Source: an uncultured Alphaproteobacteria bacterium (GTDB taxonomy: Bacteria > Pseudomonadota > Alphaproteobacteria > RF32 > CAG-239). Taken from it: a DNA stretch of 64,000 nt. The DNA is taken from positions 4,770-68,769 of the forward strand of contig CAJTMA010000006.1 of NCBI GenBank assembly GCA_910577205.1, written 5' to 3'. Positions 6,854-40,026 of this stretch are shown here, one piece after another. The number at the start of each line of letters is the position of its first letter. The first letter of the stretch is position 1. Position numbers and translations under genes: made by a program. The notes beneath the pieces were generated by a model that was given only the letters and a program-made list of their open reading frames with translations, had not been told where the DNA came from and made no database searches.

Positions 6854-8088
6854 TAATTTATTTCCTTTTCAATATTATTCAAAGCAACGTTTTTCTGCTC
6901 GCCGCTATCCAGATTTTTAACGGTAACTTCACCTTTTGCCAGCTCATCAGGGCCGACAATTACAGCAGCAAAAGCATTTGCCTTATTCGCTTTTATCATG
7001 CGTTTTTTCATATTACCGCTATAGCTTTGGTCAACGCTGAAACCTGCCTTACGCAAGCGGTATGCAATTTCCACAGCCTGAAGATTTACATCTTCGGTCA
7101 CCGGAATAACCGCTACCGGACGCGGCAGCGACACATCGGCTTCCAACAACATACTTAAGCGTTCAACGCCGCAAGCCCAGCCGATACCGGCGACTTTGCC
7201 GCCGCCCATCTGCTCAACCAGACCGTCATAACGGCCGCCGGCCAATACAGTGCCTTGCGCCCCTAATTTATCGGTTACCAGCTCAAACACTGTGTGAGAA
7301 TAATAATCCAACCCGCGAACCAAACGGTTGTTGACGCGGTATTTAATACCTAATTTATCCAGCCCGGTCAAGACCTGATTGAAGAATGATGTTGAGGCTT
7401 CATTTAAACTATCCTTATACAGCGGCGCGTTTTCAACCACTCTTTTATCACATTCTTCTTTAGAATCCAAAACCCGTAACGGATTTTTCTCCAAACGAGC
7501 TTTGCTGTCTTCAGACAATTCGTCATAATGCTCTTTTAAATAAGCAACCAATTTGGTACGGTAAGCATCGCGGCTTTCCTGATCGCCCAAAGAGTTAATC
7601 TCAACGGTAACGCTTCCGTCCAGGCCTAATTTTTCAACAAATTCGTAAGCCATGGAAATGACTTCAATATCCGCTTGCGGATTTTCAACCCCCAGAAGTT
7701 CAACACCAAACTGGGTAAACTGGCGTTGACGGCCTTTTTGCGGGCGTTCATAGCGAAACATCGGCCCGGCATAATAGAGTTTAACCGGCAGGTTCTGTTG
7801 CATTCCCTCAGAAATAAACGAACGGACAACGCCTGCCGTGCCTTCGGGGCGCAGCGTCAGGCTTTCGCCGCCGCGATCCTGAAAGCAGTACATCTCCTTG
7901 GTGACGATATCTGAGGTGTCGCCGAGATTGCGCGAGAAGACTTCCGTAAACTCAAAAATCGGGGTTTCAATTTCTTCAAAGCCATATTTCTCTACGATTT
8001 CACCACCTGTAGAAATTACTTTTTTGGCTTTGCGCTTGGCTTCGCCGTATAAATCATAAGTGCCGCGCACATTTTGAATTTTTGCCAT
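6853..8088 (-). CDS. hisS: histidine--tRNA ligase
   Basis: 411 aa. Class II aaRS motifs are present and the N-terminus matches HisRS ([17 protein letters not shown]...LRPEGTAG). Confidence 0.92.
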
Positions 8089-8089
8089 T

Positions 8090-9157
8090 TTAACTCACCT
8101 TTTCTTCAACCAGACGAACCAGCTCGTCCACGATATTTTCACTTTTAACTTTGTTAGCGGGTTTGCCGCCGATAAAAATCATATTATCACCGCCTTTGCC
8201 GCCGCAAACACCGAAATCTGCATGAGCAGATTCTCCCGGACCGTTAACAACGCAGCCCATTACAGCCAGGGTCAGAGGCTTAGTGATATGAGCCAATCTC
8301 TTTTCCAGCTCTTCAACAGTTTTTTGCACATCATACCCCCGGCGGGCGCAGGTCGGGCAAGAGATTATCCTTACGCCCCGATGTCGCAAATCAAGGGCTT
8401 TTAAGATTTCGTAGCCGGCTTTGACCTCCTCCTCCACATCTGCGGTCAACGAAACGCGCAGGGTGTCGCCAATGCCAGACATCAGCAAACTGCCGATGCC
8501 AATTGACGAACGCACAGTTCCGGCGCGCAAGCCCCCGGCTTCTGTCACGCCCAAGTGCAGCGGATAATCACTAGCCGCCGCCAATTTTTGATATGCGTTA
8601 ATCATCATCAGCGTATCAGAAGATTTTACGCTGATTTTAAACTCAAAAAAGTCATTGTCTTCAAGCATTTTAGCTTGTTCTAAGGCGCTTTCAACCATGG
8701 CGTCGGCTGTCGGTTCGCCATATTTCTCCAACAAACGCTTGTCCAACGAACCGCCATTGACACCAATGCGAATCGAGCAGCCGTTGGCCTTGGCAGCTTT
8801 CACAACTTCTTTTACCCTATCCGCACCGCCGATATTTCCGGGATTAATCCGCAGGCAGGCCGCGCCGTTATCTGCGGCCAGCAGCCCCAGGCGATAATCA
8901 AAATGAATATCAGCGACCACCGGAATACTGACAGCTTTGGTAATTTCTTTCAAAGCTTTTGCCGAAGCTTCGTCCGGGCAGGAACAGCGGGTAATATCGC
9001 AACCAACAGCCGCCTGCCGGCGAATTTGTTCGACCGTTGCTTTAACATCCGCGGTCAGGCTATTGGTCATAGACTGGACGGTTATGGGAGCATCGCCGCC
9101 GACAGCAACGTTTCCGACCATAATTTTCCGGGATTTGCGGCGCATTATTTTTTCCAT
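8090..9157 (-). CDS. ispG: 4-hydroxy-3-methylbut-2-enyl diphosphate synthase (flavodoxin)
   Basis: 355 aa. The N-terminal [28 protein letters not shown] is the typical IspG/GcpE start, and the C-terminal Cys ligands ([15 protein letters not shown]) are present. Confidence 0.92.
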
Positions 9158-9247
9158 TGGGTAGTCCTTTTATCATTTTTTCTTATTTTATAAAAATAAA
9201 AGAAAATAGCAAGTTCTCACCTGCTATTTTCTTAAATTTCAGTTTCA

Positions 9248-10261
9248 CTAATGGTTAGCTTCGAGATATTTATCAAGCGCAATGCCGATTTTCTTTTCAG
9301 AAGTAACGACCGGAACAACCTTGCCGTCAATCACAACCTCTACAGCGCCAACACGACCGACAGAGAGAATCTTGCCTTCTCCGGCAGGAACTTTATAAAC
9401 ATCTCCCGGCTGTAATACTTTGCTTATCCAAAGCTTGTCTTTATCTTTCACTTCGACCCAAGTTTCCTGATTAATTTTCAAAACGACCCGGGCATCAGCC
9501 TTTACATCTGCCGGAGCTGCAGCCGGTTCAGAAATTTCAGCAACAGGTTCGCTGGCGGCAGGCGCTTCTTCTGCCGGAGCAGCGGGAGAAGGTTCAACAA
9601 AATTGCCTTCATTGACAATCACCTGCGGCACATTTTCAACAGGCGCAGCGGTTGTGGTATCAATAATAACCATCCGTCCGTCTTCAGGTGCGGGAGCTGT
9701 TTCATCCAGCGTTGCAAAATCTTCAACCTGCAAAGGAAAACTATCTGCCGGCGCGTTGTCTACGACAAGCTCTTCCTCGGCAACCGGCTCTTCAACCGTA
9801 TTTTGGCTTTCGCTGTATGCCAGCCAGCCGGCATAGAGGGCAATAATTGCCAGCATACTGATTAACAAATACTTTTTGTTCGGCACAGTCGCTTCAGACT
9901 GCGGTTCTAAAACATAGACGTTATCCGCTTTGGCATTCGCATCTGTTTCTTCCTTGAACAGCTGGACAATGCGGGCGGAATTCAGCCCTAAAAACTCGGC
10001 ATATGACCGGATAAAACCAACACCGTACGGCGGCTCCGGAATATCCTCATAGCAACTGTTTTCAATTGCTTCCAGATAAGACGCACGAATATATAACTCT
10101 TTAGCGATATCTGCAATTTTATAGCCTTTTTTAACACGGGCATCATGCAGCATTCCGCCGACCTTGCCTTCATTGCCAGACAAATTTTCTTTAATATCCT
10201 GCACCGCTGCCGCCATTTTTTCTTCTGCGGCCTCAGCCCCTTTTGTTGTTTCCTTTTTCAC
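9248..10261 (-). CDS. rodZ: RodZ-like cytoskeleton-associated protein (XRE-type HTH with a DUF4115-like C-terminus)
   Basis: The N-terminal HTH (GYKIADIAKELYIRASYLEAIE) is followed by a TM segment, an acidic Pro/Ala-rich linker, and a beta-rich C-terminus. Its position upstream of ispG-hisS matches rodZ-ispG-hisS synteny. Confidence 0.7.
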   Translation of the reverse strand: MKKETTKGAEAAEEKMAAAVQDIKENLSGNEGKVGGMLHDARVKKGYKIADIAKELYIRASYLEAIENSCYEDIPEPPYGVGFIRSYAEFLGLNSARIVQLFKEETDANAKADNVYVLEPQSEATVPNKKYLLISMLAIIALYAGWLAYSESQNTVEEPVAEEELVVDNAPADSFPLQVEDFATLDETAPAPEDGRMVIIDTTTAAPVENVPQVIVNEGNFVEPSPAAPAEEAPAASEPVAEISEPAAAPADVKADARVVLKINQETWVEVKDKDKLWISKVLQPGDVYKVPAGEGKILSVGRVGAVEVVIDGKVVPVVTSEKKIGIALDKYLEANH

Positions 10262-10325
10262 GGTCTTGTCCCTTTAATATAATACTTTAATTCTTGCGAA
10301 TCTGCTGAGCATTGAAACATAGTTT

Positions 10326-12593
10326 TTAATAGATTTCAATACCATGGTCATAAGCATAAGCCATTAATTGCGGACGTAAAGTCCTTTTTTTAGATTTCAA
10401 TAAACTTTTCACATAATCGCTCACTTCTCCGGCATTAATGGTGCGAATCATAGATTTGACCCGCCCGAAAGATGTTCCCGTGGATGACAGGTTACGATAC
10501 CCTAAGCCAATCAGCGCCATCGCTTCAATCGGGTTGGAGGCCATCTCGCCGCACACCGAACAATAAACGCCCGCAGCATCAGCCTTGGCAACAATATCGC
10601 CCATCAGCCGCAAAAACGGCGCAGACAGAACATCGTAACGTTCTGCTAAACGCGGATTGCCGCGATCACAGGCAAAAGTAAACTGCGCTAAATCATTTGT
10701 GCCGATGGAGATAAAATCCGTTTGTTTCAGAACCTCTTCCAGCTGAAAGACAATTGACGGAACTTCCACCATTAAGCCCACGTTGACTTTAGAGGGCACG
10801 GGTGTTCCGCGGCGTTTCTCCTTATCCAGCTCAATCATCAGCGTTTCTTTGGCTTCCTCAAATTCCGACACATCCGAAATCATCGGAAACATCACATTTA
10901 ATTCCTTGCCGGCAGCGGCGCGCAGGAAAGCCCGCATTTGCTTGCGCAAAATTGCCCGGCGGTCCAGCGTAATGCGAATCGAGCGCCAGCCGATGGCCGG
11001 GTTTTCTTCTCCCATAGCGCTCCAGTAAGGCAGCAGCTTGTCCGAACCGACATCCAAACTGCGGAAGATGACTTTTTTGTTTCCGGCCTTGTCCATCAAT
11101 TCCTTGTAATAAGATATCTGGCGCTCGACATCCGGCATTACATCGGAAGCCATAAAAGGGATTTCGGTTCGATATAATCCAACGCCATCACAATTCGTGG
11201 TTTCAATATAATCCAAATCAAACGCTAGACCGACATTGATATATTGCCAGATACGCACGCCGTCCAAGGTTTTAGAGGGCAGTTTTTTCAACTCATCCAA
11301 ACGCGCCTGCAGCTTTTGCTTTTCGGCAATTTTGGTTTTAAACTTCTCCTGAATAACCAAAGACGGATTGATATAGACATAGCCGTCATTACCGTCTACC
11401 GCAACAAAATCGCCGGTTTTAATATCATTAAACAAGCCTTTTATTTTGGCAATAACCGGGATATTCAACGCCTTGGCAACGATGGCAACGTGCATTGTCG
11501 GCGTGCCGTCTTCAATAATCAAACCGCGGATTTTATGATAGTCATAATCCATCAAATCCGCAGGCCCCATGGTTTGAGCCACCACGATAATGTCATTGCT
11601 TTTGATAACTTCGCAAGCCGTACAATAATCGCCGCTCAGATAATTTTGCAAGCGGTCGGCGACATCACGTAAATCATGCAGGCGCTCTTTGAGGTATTGG
11701 TCGTTCGTCGCGGACAAACGGTTCCACATATCTTCATAAGCACGCTCGACGGCGGCTTCGGCTGTCAGCCCGGAATTAACATTATCGGCAATTTTTTTAT
11801 ACCAGCCTTTATCCTTGGCAAACATCCGGTAAGTATCCAGAATGTCAACGTGTTCGCCAATGCCGAGTTTGGTTGAGTTCAGTTTTTCATCCAAATCATC
11901 GTTCATTTGGCGGTGCGCCACCTGCAAACGCTCCAATTCTTTTTCTTTGTCCTCGGCAAAAATTTTGCTGACAGCCTGGCGGCGACGATGAATAACCGCC
12001 TGCCCTAACCCGTAGCCTTTGCTTAAGCTCAGGCCTTTTACCCGCTCCCGGGTAACCAGGCCTCGCTCCTTAATCAGCTCTTTTTTATAATTTGACATTT
12101 CATCGGATGCGACAATCTCCGCCAGCACCATGGCCACGGTTTCAAGAATTTCAATTTCTGCCCGGGAGTACTCATGAATGGCTTTGCTTTGAATAACCAA
12201 TACCCCGATAGAACGATTCCAGCGAATCAGCGGCACGCCGAGAAAACTATGGTAAGCATCCTCTCCCAGTTCAGCCTTATATGCATATTTGGGGTGTTTT
12301 GATGCCTCAGAAGCAGCCAAAGAACGCGTTGTTTTCGCAACTTCACCAATCAGCCCCTCGCCATAACGGATTGTCAGCCGGTGTTCTGCAGTTTCATTCA
12401 GACCGCAAGAGGCAAACAGCTCCAGATAGTTGTCATCTACGGCAACATAAACAGAGGCCGCGTCAGAGGAGGTCTGCTCGGCAATTACCCGGATAATTTT
12501 AGACAGTTTAACCGAAACTTCGTCCTGCCCTTCGGTAACCTGACGCAGTTGTTTAAGGATATCCATAGCCTGATTGACGGCGGGTGACTGCAT
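10326..12593 (-). CDS. ptsP: phosphoenolpyruvate-protein phosphotransferase PtsP (GAF domain plus enzyme I of the nitrogen PTS)
   Basis: 755 aa. An N-terminal GAF-like region precedes enzyme I motifs, including the PEP-utilising His region (GGRTSHAAI-like ...GTNDLAQF) and a C-terminal TIM barrel. Confidence 0.85.
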   Translation of the reverse strand: MQSPAVNQAMDILKQLRQVTEGQDEVSVKLSKIIRVIAEQTSSDAASVYVAVDDNYLELFASCGLNETAEHRLTIRYGEGLIGEVAKTTRSLAASEASKHPKYAYKAELGEDAYHSFLGVPLIRWNRSIGVLVIQSKAIHEYSRAEIEILETVAMVLAEIVASDEMSNYKKELIKERGLVTRERVKGLSLSKGYGLGQAVIHRRRQAVSKIFAEDKEKELERLQVAHRQMNDDLDEKLNSTKLGIGEHVDILDTYRMFAKDKGWYKKIADNVNSGLTAEAAVERAYEDMWNRLSATNDQYLKERLHDLRDVADRLQNYLSGDYCTACEVIKSNDIIVVAQTMGPADLMDYDYHKIRGLIIEDGTPTMHVAIVAKALNIPVIAKIKGLFNDIKTGDFVAVDGNDGYVYINPSLVIQEKFKTKIAEKQKLQARLDELKKLPSKTLDGVRIWQYINVGLAFDLDYIETTNCDGVGLYRTEIPFMASDVMPDVERQISYYKELMDKAGNKKVIFRSLDVGSDKLLPYWSAMGEENPAIGWRSIRITLDRRAILRKQMRAFLRAAAGKELNVMFPMISDVSEFEEAKETLMIELDKEKRRGTPVPSKVNVGLMVEVPSIVFQLEEVLKQTDFISIGTNDLAQFTFACDRGNPRLAERYDVLSAPFLRLMGDIVAKADAAGVYCSVCGEMASNPIEAMALIGLGYRNLSSTGTSFGRVKSMIRTINAGEVSDYVKSLLKSKKRTLRPQLMAYAYDHGIEIY

Positions 12594-35838: not shown

Positions 35839-35913
35839 GCCGCTGTAGCTCAGTGGTAGAGCACGTCATTGGTAATGACGGGGTCGCAAGTCCGATTCTT
35901 GCCAGCGGCACCA
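35839..35913 (+). tRNA. tRNA-Thr (anticodon GGU), CCA encoded
   Basis: Manual fold. The acceptor stem GCCGCTG pairs with CAGCGGC. The D stem is GCTC/GAGC. The anticodon stem CGTCA/TGACG carries the loop TTGGTAA, giving anticodon GGT. The T stem is GCAAG/CTTGC. The T loop TCCGATT is slightly unusual. Confidence 0.8.
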
Positions 35914-35916
35914 TTA

Positions 35917-35945
35917 AAAAAGCCTCCTTTAGGGAGGCTTTTTTA
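35917..35945. terminator. intrinsic terminator after the tRNA
   Basis: AAAAAAGCCTCCC-ttta-GGGAGGCTTTTTTAA. Confidence 0.6.
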
Positions 35946-35949
35946 ATGG

Positions 35950-36100
35950 TTATCGTGGGACGGGCGGAATTGCGAAGCAAGTCTGACGAAGCCGGTTGGC
36001 GGCCATCAATCGGCGAAGGACGAGGAGCTAAAGCGACGAGGTCTTGAGCGGCAGCGAAAGATGCGCTCTACCGAAAGCCCCCGCACCTTCAAAGCCAGCG
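35950..36100. repeat. solitary degenerate unit of the 80-bp repeat family (left boundary of the AT-rich islet)
   Basis: Positions 35974-36002 (GAAGCAAGTCTGACGAAGCCGGTTGGCGG) are identical to 39968-39996 in the last unit of the tandem array. The downstream CCGCACCTTCAA motif is also shared with 40052-40063. Confidence 0.6.
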
Positions 36101-36116
36101 TCACCATTTTTAGAAA

Positions 36117-36230
36117 TGCACCTTTTGAGGTGTTTTTTTTGTTATGTAAACCAAGCCTTTCAACAGTCCGATTAATGAGTTTTTGAAATAAGCACTTTTG
36201 TAAGATTATCGGTTCTTTTCGTAGCAATGA
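36117..36230. repeat. ~110-bp direct repeat, copy A (terminator-like hairpin plus conserved tail)
   Basis: CACCTTTTGAGGTG followed by T8, then ...CAGTCCGATTAATGAG.... The diverged copy B lies at 36955-37070. Confidence 0.5.
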
Positions 36231-36832
36231 ATTACGTCATAAAAAAACGGCATCGTAACATTTAAAACAATATCAGGGTTTTGATAGAAATCCCGTAAGT
36301 AAGATTGTAATTCAACTTGAATCACATTCGGCTGATTGAAAGTTTTTTGATAACGCCCTGTAAAACCAACTTTTCCTGTATAATCAGGGTGATTGACCAC
36401 CGTTTTTAATTTATATTGTTTTGCAATTTGCAAAATATGATTTAAATAAGGATAATTCTTATCATCAAAATCAGCTATACCTAAACAGATATCATAATCA
36501 ATTTCTTGATTAAAACCATGAATATCTAAAAAGTAATGGTCTTGTAAATTGTGTTCTGCAACATAATCAGAGATGAGAAATTTGTAAGGGGTAAATTTTG
36601 TTCGCACTAAAGTTGATATTTTGTTTACAGCCCCAAGATGCTTAACAAGCGCACCAGTATATAGATCTGCGCATTTTTCTTTTTTATTACAAAAACTCCG
36701 TGTTGCGTGCGGCGCAGAAAGGATTAATGAAGAAGAATAATCTATAAACTCAAAAACATCTTCTCTTTCTTCTTGTCCATGAGAACGATTTAAGATGAAA
36801 CATTCGTTATATTTTTTTAGAGTATCAATCAT
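36206..36832 (-). CDS. hypothetical protein, possibly a zinc amidase of the PghP / N-formylglutamate-amidohydrolase-like fold
   Basis: 208 aa from AT-rich DNA. The motifs SAPHATRS and FLDIHGF resemble the His-containing zinc-site motifs of phage-type poly-gamma-glutamate hydrolases. This comes from memory and is not verified. The gene is flanked by ~110-bp direct repeats. Confidence 0.5.
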   Translation of the reverse strand: MIDTLKKYNECFILNRSHGQEEREDVFEFIDYSSSLILSAPHATRSFCNKKEKCADLYTGALVKHLGAVNKISTLVRTKFTPYKFLISDYVAEHNLQDHYFLDIHGFNQEIDYDICLGIADFDDKNYPYLNHILQIAKQYKLKTVVNHPDYTGKVGFTGRYQKTFNQPNVIQVELQSYLRDFYQNPDIVLNVTMPFFYDVIHCYEKNR

Positions 36833-36954
36833 AATATTAAGTATAGATATTTAATCGTTAAAAATCAGTGTCAAATAACTTAATTTTTACTCAACTCCTT
36901 AAACCTCTCGGTCTCATCAGTCCGATAATCGCACTGTATCGCGCACCATTTGTT

Positions 36955-37070
36955 AAAATACACCTTTTAAGGTGCTTTTTTGTTATGAAAACCAAGGTTT
37001 ACAGTCAGTCCGATTTGAGAGATTTTTAAATAGCATTTTTTAATAATCTATCGGACTTTTGCCAGAAAGA
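36955..37070. repeat. ~110-bp direct repeat, copy B
   Basis: CACCTTTTAAGGTG followed by CT6, then ...CAGTCAGTCCGATTTGAGAG.... It is about 70% identical to copy A. Confidence 0.5.
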
Positions 37071-37199
37071 TAGCAGGCACAAGTGTTTACTCTTCTTAAT
37101 CCGTCTTCAATAAATTTTAATTGTTTGATTTTACCATATATAAAATTTAATAGTAAGATTACCTTATGTACATTCTGATAGCTTTTTTTTGCACCTATC

Positions 37200-38051
37200 T
37201 TGCATTCATTATCTTGTATTATTGATGCACATTTTTCAAACAGTATTTTTAATAAAACAACATCTCTTATTTTTTACGCTACCATAACAAATATAATTAT
37301 TATTCCTTTTTTATTTTTGTTTGGAACTCCGACACTCCCTTCGTGGTCTTCATTAACGGTCATTTTCATCGTTGGGGCGATAGATGTATTTTATCAAATT
37401 CCGTATTATATTGCTTTGCGTAAGGTTGACACATCAATCACGGTTGCATTGTTTTCTCTTGGAAAAGTATCTGTTCCGATTTTAGCATATTTCATTGTTG
37501 GTGAAAAATTGAGTATAATGCAATATGTTGGGTTTGGCATTATTCTTTTATCAAGCTTTTTATTAAACTTTAATCGAAAACAGTTAAAATTAAATATTGC
37601 CTTTTTTCTTATGCTAATAGTGTCATTAGCTTTATCACTAGCTTCGGTATTGGAAAAATATTCTCTTAAAGAAATTGATTTTGTAACACTTATCTTCTGG
37701 ATGGTTTTATTTTCAACATCAATATCTTTTTCTTTCCTTTTTATTAAAAATATAAGGCAGGACATTATAGATACATTTCCGAAATATAAAAAAGCCATTT
37801 CACTGTTTTTAAGTAATGAGGTATTGAGTCAGGGAGGCTCATTGGCAATGATTATCGCTCTTTCTCAACTTCCTGTTTTAACTATAAAATCAATAAATTC
37901 ATCTCAAAGTATATTTACTTTATTGTTTGGTTTTGTTCTCTATAAAATTTTTGGAGATAGGTTTAAAGAAAATTTAACTCGAGATAAAGTTATAAAAAAA
38001 CTAATTTCTTTTATTTTTATTATGATAGGAATATATTTGGTTTTAAGTTAA
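37200..38051 (+). CDS. DMT/EamA-like 10-TM transporter
   Basis: 283 aa and very AT-rich. It has ten hydrophobic helices in a 5+5 arrangement typical of drug/metabolite transporters. Confidence 0.55.
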   Translation: MHSLSCIIDAHFSNSIFNKTTSLIFYATITNIIIIPFLFLFGTPTLPSWSSLTVIFIVGAIDVFYQIPYYIALRKVDTSITVALFSLGKVSVPILAYFIVGEKLSIMQYVGFGIILLSSFLLNFNRKQLKLNIAFFLMLIVSLALSLASVLEKYSLKEIDFVTLIFWMVLFSTSISFSFLFIKNIRQDIIDTFPKYKKAISLFLSNEVLSQGGSLAMIIALSQLPVLTIKSINSSQSIFTLLFGFVLYKIFGDRFKENLTRDKVIKKLISFIFIMIGIYLVLS

Positions 38052-38197
38052 CGTCAGTTTTATATTCCTGCTCAGGATTTTAAGTCTAATAATTGCTCAG
38101 CATAAATTTTTCCAGAAACTATACCTGCAGAAGCTTTGTGTTATTTTCAATTTTAGTCATAAAAAAGACTTGCTTTGAAAAAAGCAAGTCTTTTTTA

Positions 38198-38848
38198 TTA
38201 TATGCGGCTTTCAGTCCATAGTGGTGTTAAAGTTTCTTTATACTGAGTATAATCAGTATATAACTTTTCATATTTGACAATCAGGTGCTTTTTAGCCATC
38301 CGCCACTCCGGATGTTCTTTAGCATTGATAACATGGTAGCTGTTGTCAGACAAAATAAAATGGAAAAGGTAAAACTCTTCACCATAAATACGGCCTGTAT
38401 ATCTTCCATTAATTTTGCCGTTGCTTTTTGACATACCAGCACCGACACCGCCACCAATACCGAGAACACCTCCGCCACCTCCGATTGATGATAAGTCACC
38501 GTTCAAAGAACCGTGCTCTTGAGTATCGGCTTCTTTTTCCCAGGAACAGGCAATAATTTTCAGCTTTTTGCTAACATTATTCTTTTTTATAAATTCCTGA
38601 AGTTTGTCAGTTTCTGCTTGTCGTGTTGCCCGTTGTTTTTCCACCTCAATCAGGTAAACAGAATCAACAGACAATCTGATAGATTTTTGTACCGTTTGTT
38701 CACAATTCGCAAGATATTCTTCTATTTTCTTTTGTTCCGCTTGCAGTGTGGAGATTTGAGAATCAGAGATAAAGTTTTCTGCTTGATATTTTTGAAGCTG
38801 ATCTCTGGAGGCTTCCCCATATAAAAGCAATAGCTTCCCACACAACAA
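38198..38848 (-). CDS. hypothetical protein with a coiled-coil N-terminus and a glycine-zipper motif. It may be the 3' part of a frameshifted gene.
   Basis: The GGGGGVLGIGGGVGAGMS tract resembles a glycine zipper of the SlyB/17-kDa-antigen type. There is no signal peptide of its own. The first 127 bp overlap the upstream ORF in another frame. Confidence 0.4.
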   Translation of the reverse strand: MLCGKLLLLYGEASRDQLQKYQAENFISDSQISTLQAEQKKIEEYLANCEQTVQKSIRLSVDSVYLIEVEKQRATRQAETDKLQEFIKKNNVSKKLKIIACSWEKEADTQEHGSLNGDLSSIGGGGGVLGIGGGVGAGMSKSNGKINGRYTGRIYGEEFYLFHFILSDNSYHVINAKEHPEWRMAKKHLIVKYEKLYTDYTQYKETLTPLWTESRI

Positions 38849-39252
38849 CTTCCGATAAACATGATGGAAGCAATCAGCATACCCGAATTACTGCTTTCTT
38901 CATAAACTTGCCCTCTAAAATCAACTTTGTCCCGCGGTATAGATTTTAGAAATAAAAATATAGAAAAAACAATAGGTATGACCATCCAATGTTTGATATC
39001 ATCATATGAGCTACTCATTTTTTGCTTTTCGGCGGTTAATTCATTTTTCCGATTGGAAATCGTTTGAGTAATCGCCGATAACTTTTTTCTTTGCTCGTGA
39101 TAACCGTGCTTGCTTATTTCTTTATCGTAAAATTGCTTTTCGATAACCCGTTTATCGATGTTAGATAAATATCCTGTAGCGTTTTGCGCATACAACAAAC
39201 AAAATATCGGCATAAGTGCCGACAAAACTGCAATAATAATTTTCTTTTTCAT
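38722..39252 (-). CDS. hypothetical secreted or membrane protein (signal peptide plus two TM helices)
   Basis: MKKKIIIAVLSALMPIFCLLYAQN is a signal peptide. Hydrophobic segments follow (WMVIPIVFSIFLFL, MLIASIMFIGSCCVGSYCFY) and the tail is basic. Confidence 0.45.
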   Translation of the reverse strand: MKKKIIIAVLSALMPIFCLLYAQNATGYLSNIDKRVIEKQFYDKEISKHGYHEQRKKLSAITQTISNRKNELTAEKQKMSSSYDDIKHWMVIPIVFSIFLFLKSIPRDKVDFRGQVYEESSNSGMLIASIMFIGSCCVGSYCFYMGKPPEISFKNIKQKTLSLILKSPHCKRNKRK

Positions 39253-39423
39253 AATGTTTTATTTTAATTGTTAATATTTTTTAAAACAAAAAACATTTTT
39301 GAAACCAAGATTGATTACTCAATAATTGACTACAATAATGCTTTTTAATGAGTAAAGAATATCACATCCCCCTATTTTTGCAAGCACAAAAATTGACAAA
39401 AAAGGAGAGATAAGGAGTTTTGC

Positions 39424-40026
39424 GGCGGAGGGAGAGGCGCTTTATGGCGAGGGGTGAGCCGAGTTGCAAAGCAAGTTTGGCAAGCCGGTTGGCGGCGGTC
39501 ATCGGCGAAGCGAGAGGCGTTTTGAGGCGGAGGTTGAGCCGAGTTGCAAAGCAAGTTTGGCAAGCCTGCCGGTGGCGGTCATCGGCGGAGGGAGAGGCGC
39601 TTTGAGGCGGAGGTTGAGCCGCGTTGCGAAGCAAGTCCGACAAGCTGGTTGGCGGCAGTCATCGGCGGAGGGAGAGGCGTTTTATGGCGTGGGGTGAGCC
39701 GCGTTGCGAAGCTAGTCCGGCAAGCCGGTTGGCGGAGGTCATCGGTAGAGGATGTGCCGCAAAGCGCCACAGGTTGGGCTGAGTTGCGAAGCTAGTCCGG
39801 CAAGCCGGTTGGCGGAGGTCATCGGTAGAGGATGTGCCGCAAAGCGCCACAGGTTGAGCTGAGTTGCGAAGCAAGTCCGGCAAGCCGGTTGGCGGCGGTC
39901 ATCGGCGGAGGATGAGGAGCTTTGTGACGTGGGTTGAGCCGTGTTGTGAAGCAAGTCTGACGAAGCCGGTTGGCGGAGGTCATCGGCGGAGGATGAGGCG
40001 CTTTGTGGTGTGAGTTGAGCCATTAA
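39424..40026. repeat. tandem array of about 7.5 copies of an 80-bp repeat, not a CRISPR array
   Basis: Full units start at 39456, 39536, 39616, 39696, 39776, 39856 and 39936. A representative unit is GAGCCGAGTTGCAAAGCAAGTTTGGCAAGCCGGTTGGCGGCGGTCATCGGCGGAGGGAGAGGCGCTTTGAGGCGGAGGTT. Copies are about 85-97% identical and there are no unique spacers. Each unit contains the small palindromes TTGCaaaGCAA and GCCGgttggCGGC. Confidence 0.85.

Follow-up and report, generated by a model that had tools for sequence, protein, structure and literature searches.

In staphylococci, SCCmec and pseudo-SCC elements are inserted by Ccr large serine recombinases at the 3' end of the conserved gene rlmH, as units of 3–60 kb. 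SCC islands hold such elements in tandem with short direct core repeats between them, and units without a recombinase are thought to have been moved in trans. The array described here, found in a 64-kb stretch of an uncultured alphaproteobacterial genome (the window), shares with SCCmec the targeting of a single conserved gene's 3' end, tandem accumulation, core direct repeats and recombinase-less units. It differs in its target, which is tRNA-Thr and not rlmH, and in its mostly single-gene units of 0.6–2.5 kb against 3–60 kb. Its boundaries each comprise about 170 bp of conserved sequence, in which a sequence resembling the 3' end of the tRNA (T') is joined to an element (E) that contains a terminator and an invariant inverted repeat. 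It occurs in gut Alphaproteobacteria, and the recombinase is about 30% identical to a Ccr-annotated protein.

Three other systems invite comparison. Tycheposons of Prochlorococcus integrate at tRNA genes, including Thr-GGT, and carry tyrosine recombinases (in 910 of 937) and replication genes (10.1101/2020.12.28.424599). The array resembles them in its tRNA integration, the apparent displacement of older elements outward, scattered partial tRNA copies and degenerate elements, and defence or adaptive cargo (10.1101/2020.12.28.424599). Unlike the array's units, tycheposons are multi-gene, and neither an E-type boundary nor a regular single-gene array has been described for them. Their hallmark integrase and replication module (primase/helicase/polymerase) are absent from the islet in the window and from the recurrent array genes. 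Chromosomal integrons, whose defence-cassette content has been described (10.1101/2024.07.02.601686), and CALINs, attC clusters that lack an integrase, resemble the array in form: diverse, mostly one-gene cassettes, many of them defence-related, a conserved separator of ~60–140 bp, one privileged insertion end, and many arrays without an adjacent recombinase. Yet the array lacks an IntI tyrosine recombinase, attI and Pc, its recurrent neighbours are housekeeping genes, its cassettes are not co-oriented, and its candidate enzyme is a serine recombinase. Its boundary, a tRNA-end mimic with a terminator and an inverted repeat, is conserved in sequence, whereas attC, with its R''/L''-L'/R' cores, is conserved in structure. 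CIMEs (cis-mobilizable elements), which are non-autonomous and arise through accretion at the att sites of ICEs (review: PMC5704250), are likewise att-flanked, devoid of their own recombinase and tied to tandem accretion in origin or movement; they are, however, occasional ICE derivatives in Firmicutes, with no regular multi-cassette arrays and no dedicated boundary element. The literature that we searched contained no description of such a cassette architecture.

A one-gene unit downstream of tRNA-Thr

Two direct repeats of about 115–125 bp bracket a minus-strand gene for a 208-aa protein. The initial annotation had recognised this pair and the terminator-like hairpins at its starts, but set its limits at 36117–36230 and 36955–37070; we place the copies at 36102–36225 (copy A) and 36944–37070 (copy B), because the repeat begins at CACCATTT, 15 nt earlier. 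The copies align over ~125 bp with 81% column identity (BLAST E 3.5e-17). Against shuffled sequence, the hairpin motif CACCTTTTRAGGTG matches twice (36119–36132 and 36961–36974; 0.02 expected), both times scoring as terminator-like, TTTTTTGTTATGWAAACCAAG also twice (0.00 expected), and CAGTCCGAT three times, at 36164, 36918 and 37006 (0.21 expected). The additional CAGTCCGAT fragment had been noticed before, although its start is 36918 and not 36922.

Each copy of E opens with a tRNA-like CACCA end and follows one order: the core CACCATTT, a covarying intrinsic-terminator hairpin and, after ~25 nt of variable sequence, an invariant 10-bp inverted repeat, AAGTCCGATT-N34-AATCGGACTT. Direct copies of CACCATT lie at 35909, within the tRNA gene, and at 36102 and 36944 (Table 1). 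A profile HMM of E finds copies A and B alone in the 64-kb window. We judge it probable that the two repeats mark the boundaries of a one-gene cassette, part of an integron-like array that lies 3' of tRNA-Thr. The earlier impression of a small gene cassette in place of ordinary intergenic sequence agrees with this: 36107–36948 is one member of the array, and the repeats are two copies of its boundary element. That annotation had passed over the presence of tRNA-Thr 190 bp upstream, the CACCA start of each copy, and the place of the third CAGTCCGAT within a pseudo-tRNA end.

Table 1. Features of the array in the window (positions count from the first letter of the window)
Feature	Position	Strand	Remarks
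tRNA-Thr(GGT), array anchor	35839–35913	+	ARAGORN; Rfam tRNA 70.9 bits
Core CACCA of the tRNA-Thr(GGT) 3' end (GTCCGAT-N12-CACCA)	35909–35913	+	
M0, GC-rich module without ORF	35914–36106	+	
tRNA terminator hairpin in M0	35916–35945		
One unit of 80-bp GC-rich repeat in M0	35954–36029		
Degenerate tRNA 3' end copy in M0	36094–36106		GCCAGCGTCACCA
E copy A, left end of 208-aa cassette	36102–36225	+	nhmmer 63.5 bits
Copy A core	36102–36109		CACCATTT
Copy A terminator hairpin (plus T-run)	36118–36133		
Copy A left arm	36164–36173		CAGTCCGATT
Copy A right arm, degenerate	36206–36215		TTATCGGTTC; overlaps stop codon of 208-aa gene
Cargo gene, 208 aa, predicted FGase/PghP-like amidohydrolase fold	36206–36832	-	
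T', pseudo-tRNA 3' end closing the cassette	36893–36948	+	CAGTCCGAT 36918–36926, 17 nt, CACCA 36944–36948
E copy B, left end of next unit	36944–37070	+	nhmmer 78.5 bits
Copy B core	36944–36951		
Copy B hairpin	36961–36974		
Copy B left arm	37006–37015		CAGTCCGATT
Copy B right arm	37049–37058		TATCGGACTT
EamA-family transporter gene, cargo of unit opened by copy B	37200–38051	+	Pfam EamA E 1.6e-15
Two ORFs, no assigned function (38198–38848, 38722–39252)	38104–39420	-	low GC; kept in variant L004
80-bp GC-rich tandem repeat, 7.5 copies	39423–40021	+	TRF; related to M0 interior

M0, between the tRNA gene and copy A, has homologues of 180–226 nt in at least 28 other species; their alignment was too heterogeneous for a consensus structure beyond the terminator hairpin, and searches of the element and M0 against Rfam, at the gathering cut-off and at E ≤ 5, matched the tRNA alone. 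Breakpoints of strain variants fall at 36934 and 36957, around T'. The block 36940–38065, which holds copy B and the EamA gene, has a 90% identical counterpart in another species (L120), where a different end precedes it. We looked for a T' after the EamA gene and found none, so that the last unit of the window is not closed by T'; its right edge, at ~38065–38104, is a junction of another type. Nor does a T' delimit the pair of ORFs that follows. The 80-bp tandem repeat marks the right edge of the low-GC islet, whose ORFs are the FGase-like gene, the EamA gene and the two without assigned function. PADLOC gave no match for the four islet proteins of the window.

Boundary elements form a large family in gut Alphaproteobacteria

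E belongs to a large family, contrary to the outcome that would have refuted the initial annotation, an element confined to these two positions. A scan for CACCATTT-N50–58-AGTCCGATT-N32–38-ATCGG returned at least 119 genome loci, against about 4 expected by chance on our own estimate, nearly all in metagenome-assembled genomes of gut Alphaproteobacteria and often with 2–3 copies per 8 kb. The HMM collected 216 copies, co-oriented in 130 of 134 loci with a median spacing of 1231 bp. Of these copies, 46 lie directly 3' of tRNA-Thr(GGT). E is preceded either by that tRNA gene or by T'; a few arrays begin at tRNA-Leu or tRNA-Thr(CGT) instead, and arrays starting at the tRNA reach six copies. Within arrays, copies stand 0.6–2.5 kb apart with mostly one gene between them (a single ORF in 46 of 67 intervals). 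Defence genes abound in the cargo, which is very diverse (84 ORFs in 62 clusters) and whose strand is indifferent to the terminator (44 opposite, 40 same).

Conservation within E differs by part. The core hardly varies among 184 elements, and the hairpin covaries across copies. Across the inverted-repeat arms we counted 33 one-arm changes against one double change, with no covariation. Such uncompensated changes rule out an RNA stem formed by the GTCCGAT inverted repeat and indicate a site read at the DNA level; the pattern points to the arms as a candidate protein-binding site. A search of the viral contigs in IMG/VR found neither the element nor the recombinase described below, and on this basis we rejected a phage or satellite carrier.

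Junctions fall at the tRNA-derived core

Matching blocks of E and cargo follow a true tRNA in one species and a T' or other end in another, with homology beginning at positions -1 to -4 of CACCA, as in L044/L121 (97.5% over 1504 bp), L025/L116 and L046/L134. In a further pair, L112 and L126 (95.6% over 1685 bp), what precedes the block is an M0-type end in the former and a different tRNA gene in the latter; the homology in L112 stops ~9 nt into the next E. Polymorphism by presence/absence or replacement is seen at the core between the window and L012/L016, between L146 and L143, and in the cross-species pairs. In L012 and L016, from the window's own species, an element encoding a recombinase and EcoRI replaces the M0 segment, sits exactly between the tRNA CACCATT and E copy A, and is closed by its own T'. 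In L146 a cassette separates the tRNA from a full-length recombinase gene.

Other junctions fall within the inverted-repeat spacer, a minor class (L062/L103), or within T' (L004/L012/L126). The former pointed at first to a main crossover midway through the inverted repeat, an idea that we dropped when the majority of independent pairs turned out to have their breakpoint at the CACCATTT core. A scan of metagenome contigs for the junction that a circular form of the window cassette would have, ...AATCGCACTGTATCGCGCACCA|TTTTTAGAAATGCACC..., found none, a weak negative from one scan; its two matches were ordinary arrays of other species.

The two kinds of left end differ in spacing. From GTCCGAT to CACCA the spacing is 12 nt in 43 of 44 tRNA contexts and 17–18 nt in 57 of 60 T' ends. 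For large serine recombinases, the zinc-ribbon-domain motif of attB sits 5 bp nearer the centre than that of attP (PMC3783163), a rule that the left half-sites fit. The tRNA-Thr 3' end, GTCCGAT-N12-CACCA, would be an attB-like left half-site. In the right half-sites, no GTCCGAT motif occurs at the expected distance.

A large serine recombinase occupies the same site in relatives

Homologues of a large serine recombinase (LSR) adjoin tRNA-Thr in L143–L145. These proteins, of 514–548 aa with Resolvase, Recombinase and Zn_ribbon domains, are 80–92% identical to the remnant in L012, and further remnants occur in L013, L016 and L017. The LSR ORF runs antisense through the tRNA and spans the core. 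In these autonomous relatives the core is unchanged, the recombinase gene contains within its 3' end an inverted repeat like that of E, which there encodes KSPIISQKKDILNLILSD, and the far end is formed by a T'. The E HMM matches that 3' end (E 1e-5). All E copies nonetheless depart from the gene in one way: the covarying terminator hairpin takes the place of a coding segment, and core and inverted repeat lie 55 nt apart, against 84 nt in the gene. The database searched also contains graded C-terminal remnants of the recombinase, 222–406 aa long and in some cases fused to cargo domains, and one distant homologue (~30% identity) is annotated 'cassette chromosome recombinase B'.

Most arrays carry no such gene. 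The window encodes no recombinase, and none recurs within 8 kb of arrays in the at least 119 genome loci, where clustering of ORFs of at least 150 aa yielded housekeeping flanks and recurrent cargo only. For these 8-kb loci we dropped the idea of a dedicated recombinase beside the arrays.

Proposed mechanism and alternatives

We favour a reading in which 36107–36948 is a non-autonomous cassette, brought to the 3' end of tRNA-Thr by site-specific recombination, likely through an LSR; the builder of the array is probably a serine recombinase. The repeats would be successive boundaries of an array growing from the 3' end of tRNA-Thr(GGT). The left half of a boundary would be the tRNA 3' end itself (GTCCGAT-N12-CACCA) at the first and the T' mimic (GTCCGAT-N17-CACCA) at internal ones. 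Crossover would take place in the common core of 8–11 bp, (G)CACCATTT, and is expected inside GCACCATTT; E, with its hairpin and then AAGTCCGATT-N34-AATCGGACTT, would form the third part. The mobile unit would then be E, cargo and T', in the window with a single amidohydrolase-fold gene as cargo. New units would enter at the tRNA-proximal core and displace older ones outward.

The likely enzyme is a tRNA-Thr-specific LSR encoded by the autonomous relatives, and since the window cassettes lack its gene, movement would need to be in trans. The anatomy, the family, the layout of the arrays, the junction positions, the recombinase at this site in relatives and the 5-bp shift in spacing are observations; we infer that this LSR catalyses cassette movement with the tRNA side as attB and T' as attP. 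Each exchange may regenerate one B-type and one P-type site, which would leave the tRNA end receptive. To our knowledge, attL is no target for canonical large serine integrases, so repeated insertion at the tRNA would call for a special half-site logic or a relaxed, Ccr-like enzyme.

Some of the same observations could be read as scars. Whole recombinase-bearing elements might integrate serially at tRNA-Thr and then suffer deletions that leave a 3' stump (E), some cargo and a displaced end (T'). On this view no small cassette ever moved as a unit, and the repeats are without function today. The significant similarity of E to the recombinase gene's 3' end, the inverted repeat inside its coding sequence, the graded remnants with their cargo-domain fusions, and the remnants in L012 and L013 all suit such decay. 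We nevertheless hold it unlikely. Every E shares a derived architecture that the gene lacks, and the inverted-repeat arms are invariant where they encode no protein. Moreover, identical E-and-cargo blocks with precise core boundaries recur across species and array positions, which implies transfer of units already without a recombinase gene.

It is less probable still that E is conserved intergenic punctuation, a terminator with an operator-like protein-binding site that shields horizontally acquired genes 3' of tRNA-Thr, and that units are swapped by RecA-type exchange between such spacers after DNA uptake, with no site-specific enzyme. The terminator-like hairpin is bona fide, the arms resemble the target of a dimeric DNA-binding protein, a recombinase is missing from the surroundings of most arrays, and some junctions lie inside E, off the core. 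But most junctions fall at an identity block of 8–11 bp, too short for RecA; cargo shows no orientation bias towards the terminator; and the exact +5-bp spacing of T' and the core-spanning recombinase ORF go unexplained. The MITE-like pair proposed by the initial annotation, or a REP-type dispersed repeat or classical integron cassette with attC sites, would also give a single gene flanked by short hairpin-bearing repeats. All of these are highly improbable: the two copies in 64 kb are both inside the array, are direct, and have neither terminal inverted repeats nor target-site duplications, and copies elsewhere are co-oriented and nearly always in arrays from tRNA-Thr(GGT). Against an integron in particular, the islet ORFs include no integron integrase, the cargo is not co-oriented, and reading the element consensus by eye revealed no attC-type GTTRRRY/RYYYAAC core pair.

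Site-specific insertion, the reading we prefer, admits a broader form that we put forward tentatively, as possible but somewhat short of even odds. Gut Alphaproteobacteria may own a functional analogue of the integron driven by a serine recombinase. Its fixed capture site would be tRNA-Thr(GGT) and its portable, attC-like sites T' plus E, with 12-nt B-type and 17-nt P-type left half-sites keeping the tRNA receptive. One-gene cassettes, largely for anti-phage defence, would be captured, stockpiled and traded between species without a recombinase of their own. If so, this would be an independently evolved capture platform chemically unrelated to the integron, with a serine in place of a tyrosine recombinase and double-stranded att-like sites in place of folded attC. 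It would explain how poorly known, uncultured gut bacteria stock and trade defence and accessory genes. The signature of T', core and E would be compact enough to mine metagenomes for new single-gene defence systems, and a natural LSR whose site asymmetry permits repeated insertion at one locus would interest engineers of serial DNA assembly.

The cargo protein

The 208-aa protein, which carries the SAPHA and DIHGF motifs seen earlier, is predicted to have an FGase/PghP-type amidohydrolase fold, as in the poly-gamma-glutamate hydrolases PghP and YndL. The initial guess of an amidase therefore stands at the level of superfamily and fold, given the match of the AlphaFold model, but not by Pfam's own threshold: PF05013 reaches E 0.0026 and 18.4 bits against a curated cut-off of 28.9 bits, and PF05908, the other family suggested, does not match. 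PF05013 appears at E < 0.01 in 33 of 40 homologues, all weak matches (best 1.9e-6). A profile of the protein found just spurious weak matches among PDB sequences, and a fold search was needed. With the AlphaFold model (pLDDT 95.6), Foldseek ranked PghP, YndL, Atu2144 and the FGase 2q7s at the top of the PDB (probability 1.00, E 7e-7 to 9e-4, TM 0.50–0.57), at sequence identities of just 10–16%. FGases are ~260 aa long, whereas the window protein is shorter. For annotation, the proposed model would make this gene and its neighbours recently acquired cargo and not core genes. Among the homologues, His42, His99, Asp103, His105 and Glu174 are invariant.

tRNA-like ends precede both window repeats

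The 208-aa ORF with SAPHA and DIHGF motifs and its flanking direct repeats, as described in the initial annotation, are both present. The repeats, copies A and B of a boundary element (E), are 115-125 bp long with 81% column identity (BLAST E 3.5e-17), and their hairpin, TTTTTTGTTATGWAAACCAAG block and CAGTCCGAT are each far commoner than in shuffled sequence. Both hairpins have intrinsic-terminator scores on the plus strand. Because each copy opens with CACCATTT, the starts first assigned lay about 15 nt too late; a third CAGTCCGAT fragment is real and starts at 36918, not 36922. The 3' end of the upstream tRNA-Thr gene, ...GTCCGATTCTTGCCAGCGGCACCA, has two echoes, one ahead of each copy. The pair had been likened to a MITE-type element, and it lacks the features that define MITEs.

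The tRNA-Thr T-loop reads TCCGATT, with C at position 55, where U is to our knowledge almost universal. Its motif GTCCGAT is kept in 43 of 44 tRNA-Thr genes adjoining arrays and is reused in both inverted-repeat arms of E and in T', the mimic of the tRNA-Thr 3' end that closes a cassette. GC content is 28-35% across 36.1-39.4 kb, against ~46% elsewhere. Besides the FGase-like 208-aa protein, this islet encodes an EamA transporter and two proteins of unknown function; none of these is a recombinase. GC-rich 80-bp repeats border the islet: the tandem array at the right is 81-85% identical to a single unit at the left edge (35954-36029) within M0, an ORF-less module. The 80-bp copy number varies among three otherwise near-identical contigs (L001, L002 and L004; L numbers denote comparison loci).

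Features of the window and parts of the cassette boundary
Feature	Window position	Description
tRNA-Thr(GGT) gene	35839-35913	upstream of copy A
T-loop	35890-35896	TCCGATT
M0	35914-36106	between tRNA-Thr and first E
tRNA 3'-end echo	36094-36106	GCCAGCGTCACCA, immediately ahead of copy A
E copy A	36102-36225	direct repeat
208-aa ORF	36206-36832	minus strand
tRNA 3'-end echo	36918-36948	CAGTCCGATAATCGCACTGTATCGCGCACCA, immediately ahead of copy B
E copy B	36944-37070	direct repeat
80-bp tandem repeat	39423-40021	7.5 GC-rich copies, right edge of low-GC islet
T'		~55 nt, conserved mimic, ...CTTAAAATCNTCATA...TTAGTCCGATAATYGCAYAGTATCKCGCACCA
M0 end		ORF-less GC-rich module terminating in ATTCTTGCCAGCGGCACCA
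Core		near-invariant CACCATTT, then A-rich stretch
Hairpin		compensatory changes among copies (GCACC/GGTGC, TCCGCC/GGCGGA, CCGCCT/AGGCGG, GCCTCC/GGAGGC), then T-run
Variable stretch		~25 nt after the T-run
Inverted repeat		AAGTCCGATT, 34-nt spacer (semi-conserved GAAAATAGCA centre), AATCGGACTTTT

E forms a large family arrayed at tRNA genes

The element has a large family elsewhere. Scanning one genome per species with the pattern CACCATTT-N50-58-AGTCCGATT-N32-38-ATCGG returned at least 119 loci, against about 4 expected by chance on our own estimate. The matches listed lie almost all in uncultured gut Alphaproteobacteria, and a single 8-kb stretch often contains 2-3 copies. The hosts are humans, ruminants, horses and birds. 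A 119-column E HMM found 216 copies in the loci listed, co-oriented in 130 of 134 loci, spaced 0.6-2.5 kb apart (median 1231 bp) and directly 3' of tRNA-Thr(GGT) in 46 cases; in the 64-kb window it found only the two known copies. Most of the sequences analysed come from MAGs and short contigs. Locus maps show arrays of up to six copies, the first at the tRNA, with one ORF in 46 of 67 intervals and two in 16. E also lies downstream of tRNA-Leu(TAA/CAA) and tRNA-Thr(CGT) in a few genomes (e.g. L141 8225-8582), so the system is not strictly confined to tRNA-Thr(GGT).

Upstream of the core stands a true tRNA 3' end, T' or an M0 end. Changes in the inverted repeat affect one arm only in 33 distinct copies and both arms in one; the scan pattern fixes the arm sequences, and 34 copies unconstrained by it are conserved likewise. 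As the arms never covary, the repeat is a motif of the DNA itself, presumably bound by a protein, rather than an RNA stem. M0 occupies 180-226 nt in the window, in L140 (6905-7085) and in 27 other loci. The tRNA terminator hairpin forms its start, its interior has several GC-rich hairpins, and its final stretch, ATTCTTGCCAGCGGCACCA, repeats the 19 nt that close tRNA-Thr; the window version of this stretch is degenerate. M0 occurs in 28 or more species, four of which have it doubled in tandem. It matches nothing in Rfam and may represent either a cassette lacking cargo or a small RNA of an unknown kind.

Shared blocks define the cassette unit

All-against-all comparison of element neighbourhoods and targeted alignments located the junctions. 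One E-plus-cargo block occurs behind different upstream ends: a true tRNA or T' (L044 and L121, 97.5% over 1504 bp; L025 and L116, 95.7% over 623 bp; L046 and L134, 82.6% over about 1620 bp), or an M0-type end and a different tRNA gene (L112 and L126, 95.6% over 1685 bp). In all four pairs similarity begins at -1 to -4 of CACCA; the last block extends through ~9 nt of the next E in L112 and breaks off inside a truncated T' in L126. The second window unit (36940-38065, copy B and EamA) likewise recurs at 90% identity behind other upstream sequence in L120. The unit is thus core, E, cargo and T', spanning 36107-36948 in the window. Two minor junction classes lie inside the inverted-repeat spacer (L062/L103) and within T', a few nt past GTCCGATAAYYGCA (L004, L012, L013, L126; window 36934). 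At the latter, unrelated DNA such as a Fic module (L012, and L013 in reverse complement) starts without the CACCA core.

Variants from metagenome contigs encoding an identical 208-aa protein or the neighbouring META-domain protein show that unit boundaries coincide with tRNA-like CACCA ends. L004 has Fic, D12 methylase and DUF6996/6997/7226 genes in place of window 36935-38103 (copy B and EamA), and L005 and L009 part from the window directly after CACCATTTGTTAAA, at 36957. In both L012 and L016, the tRNA CACCATT and copy A are separated precisely by an element of 3.8 kb. It encodes EcoRI and M.EcoRI together with a large serine recombinase, which is truncated, and a 142-aa ORF, and it closes with its own pseudo-tRNA end, TTAGTCCGATATTCGCACAATATCGCGCACCA.

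This logic resembles that of SCCmec/pseudo-SCC arrays, CIMEs, tycheposon-seeded tRNA islands and integrons/CALINs; the defining features of tycheposons and integrons are absent here. Among the full-text papers searched, none describes cassettes arrayed at tRNA-Thr in Alphaproteobacteria and bounded by an element of this kind, which does not prove novelty.

Cargo is diverse and includes defense genes

Array cargo comprises 84 ORFs in 62 clusters with no strand bias. It includes Fic (PADLOC PDC-S04), NERD, HNH, restriction enzymes, methylases, components of Mokosh, Uzume and PD-T4-3, and ankyrin, NUDIX, GNAT, EamA and YgjV proteins. The commonest is Fic (13 loci), a PADLOC candidate system at E 8e-107. 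Homologues of the 208-aa protein (183, each ~205 aa) occur in other contexts, repeatedly beside Fic, and the two genes adjoin in three independent contexts (L004 9156-9764, L012 2535-3143, L141 6721-7329). They may form a two-gene module; the window lacks Fic. The proposed amidase assignment holds at the level of superfamily and fold. Of 40 homologues, 33 match PF05013; the window protein itself is a sub-threshold FGase match in Pfam. Its confident AlphaFold model (pLDDT 95.6) has as best matches in the PDB the poly-gamma-glutamate hydrolases PghP and YndL, the protein Atu2144 and, separately, an N-formylglutamate amidohydrolase. PADLOC does not recognize the protein.

A serine recombinase is the candidate enzyme

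Full-length relatives of the L012 remnant (514-548 aa, 80-92% identity) have Resolvase, Recombinase and Zn-ribbon domains and are abundant in metagenomes; the 64-kb window holds no copy of the gene. Relatives in L143, L144 and L145 lie directly against tRNA-Thr in the chromosomal surroundings seen at the window, marked in all three by META-domain and SerRS genes. The core, an E-like left end and T' are common to elements with and without recombinase. At its 3' end the recombinase gene is hit by the E HMM, and the matched stretch includes a 36-nt-spaced GTCCGAT inverted repeat encoding KSPIISQKKDILNLILSD. The link to the cassettes is circumstantial, and a search of metagenome contigs found no circular intermediate.

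Site geometry suggests how such an enzyme might act. GTCCGAT precedes CACCA by 12 nt in tRNAs (43/44) and by 17-18 nt in T' (57/60). In serine integrases, the distal zinc-ribbon-domain motif occupies positions 16-24 of attP half-sites and lies 5 bp nearer the centre in attB (PMC3783163). Taking the motif as the 9-mer AGTCCGATW places the central dinucleotide at the GC of GCACCA in both sites, inside the observed identity block. The left half of the tRNA boundary would then be B-type and that of every T' boundary P-type, all right halves being E starts, in which we found no motif matching GTCCGAT. Exchange between the tRNA boundary and the T'|E junction of a circular cassette would yield one B-type and one P-type site again. 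The tRNA end would then stay open to further insertion, which could explain growth from that end.

Integration alters the recombinase C-terminus, since the ORF's end depends on array position. When first in the array, it runs antisense into tRNA-Thr and stops there (526 aa); the final 15 codons, WCRWQESDLRPRHYQ, are the antisense of the tRNA 3' half. With a cassette in front, it ends inside T' (540-548 aa). L146 shows this second arrangement: a cassette made up of E, two ORFs and T' separates tRNA and recombinase, whose 548-aa ORF terminates inside T'. The ORF crosses its own attachment core (L143 970-2550; L146 2222-3868).

Two recombinase types exploit this tRNA: L140, from a related species, has an island with a tyrosine integrase (7083-12297) at the same tRNA-Thr. 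A partial tRNA copy of 48 nt is left by this island, and after it come M0, E and a homologue of the 208-aa gene.
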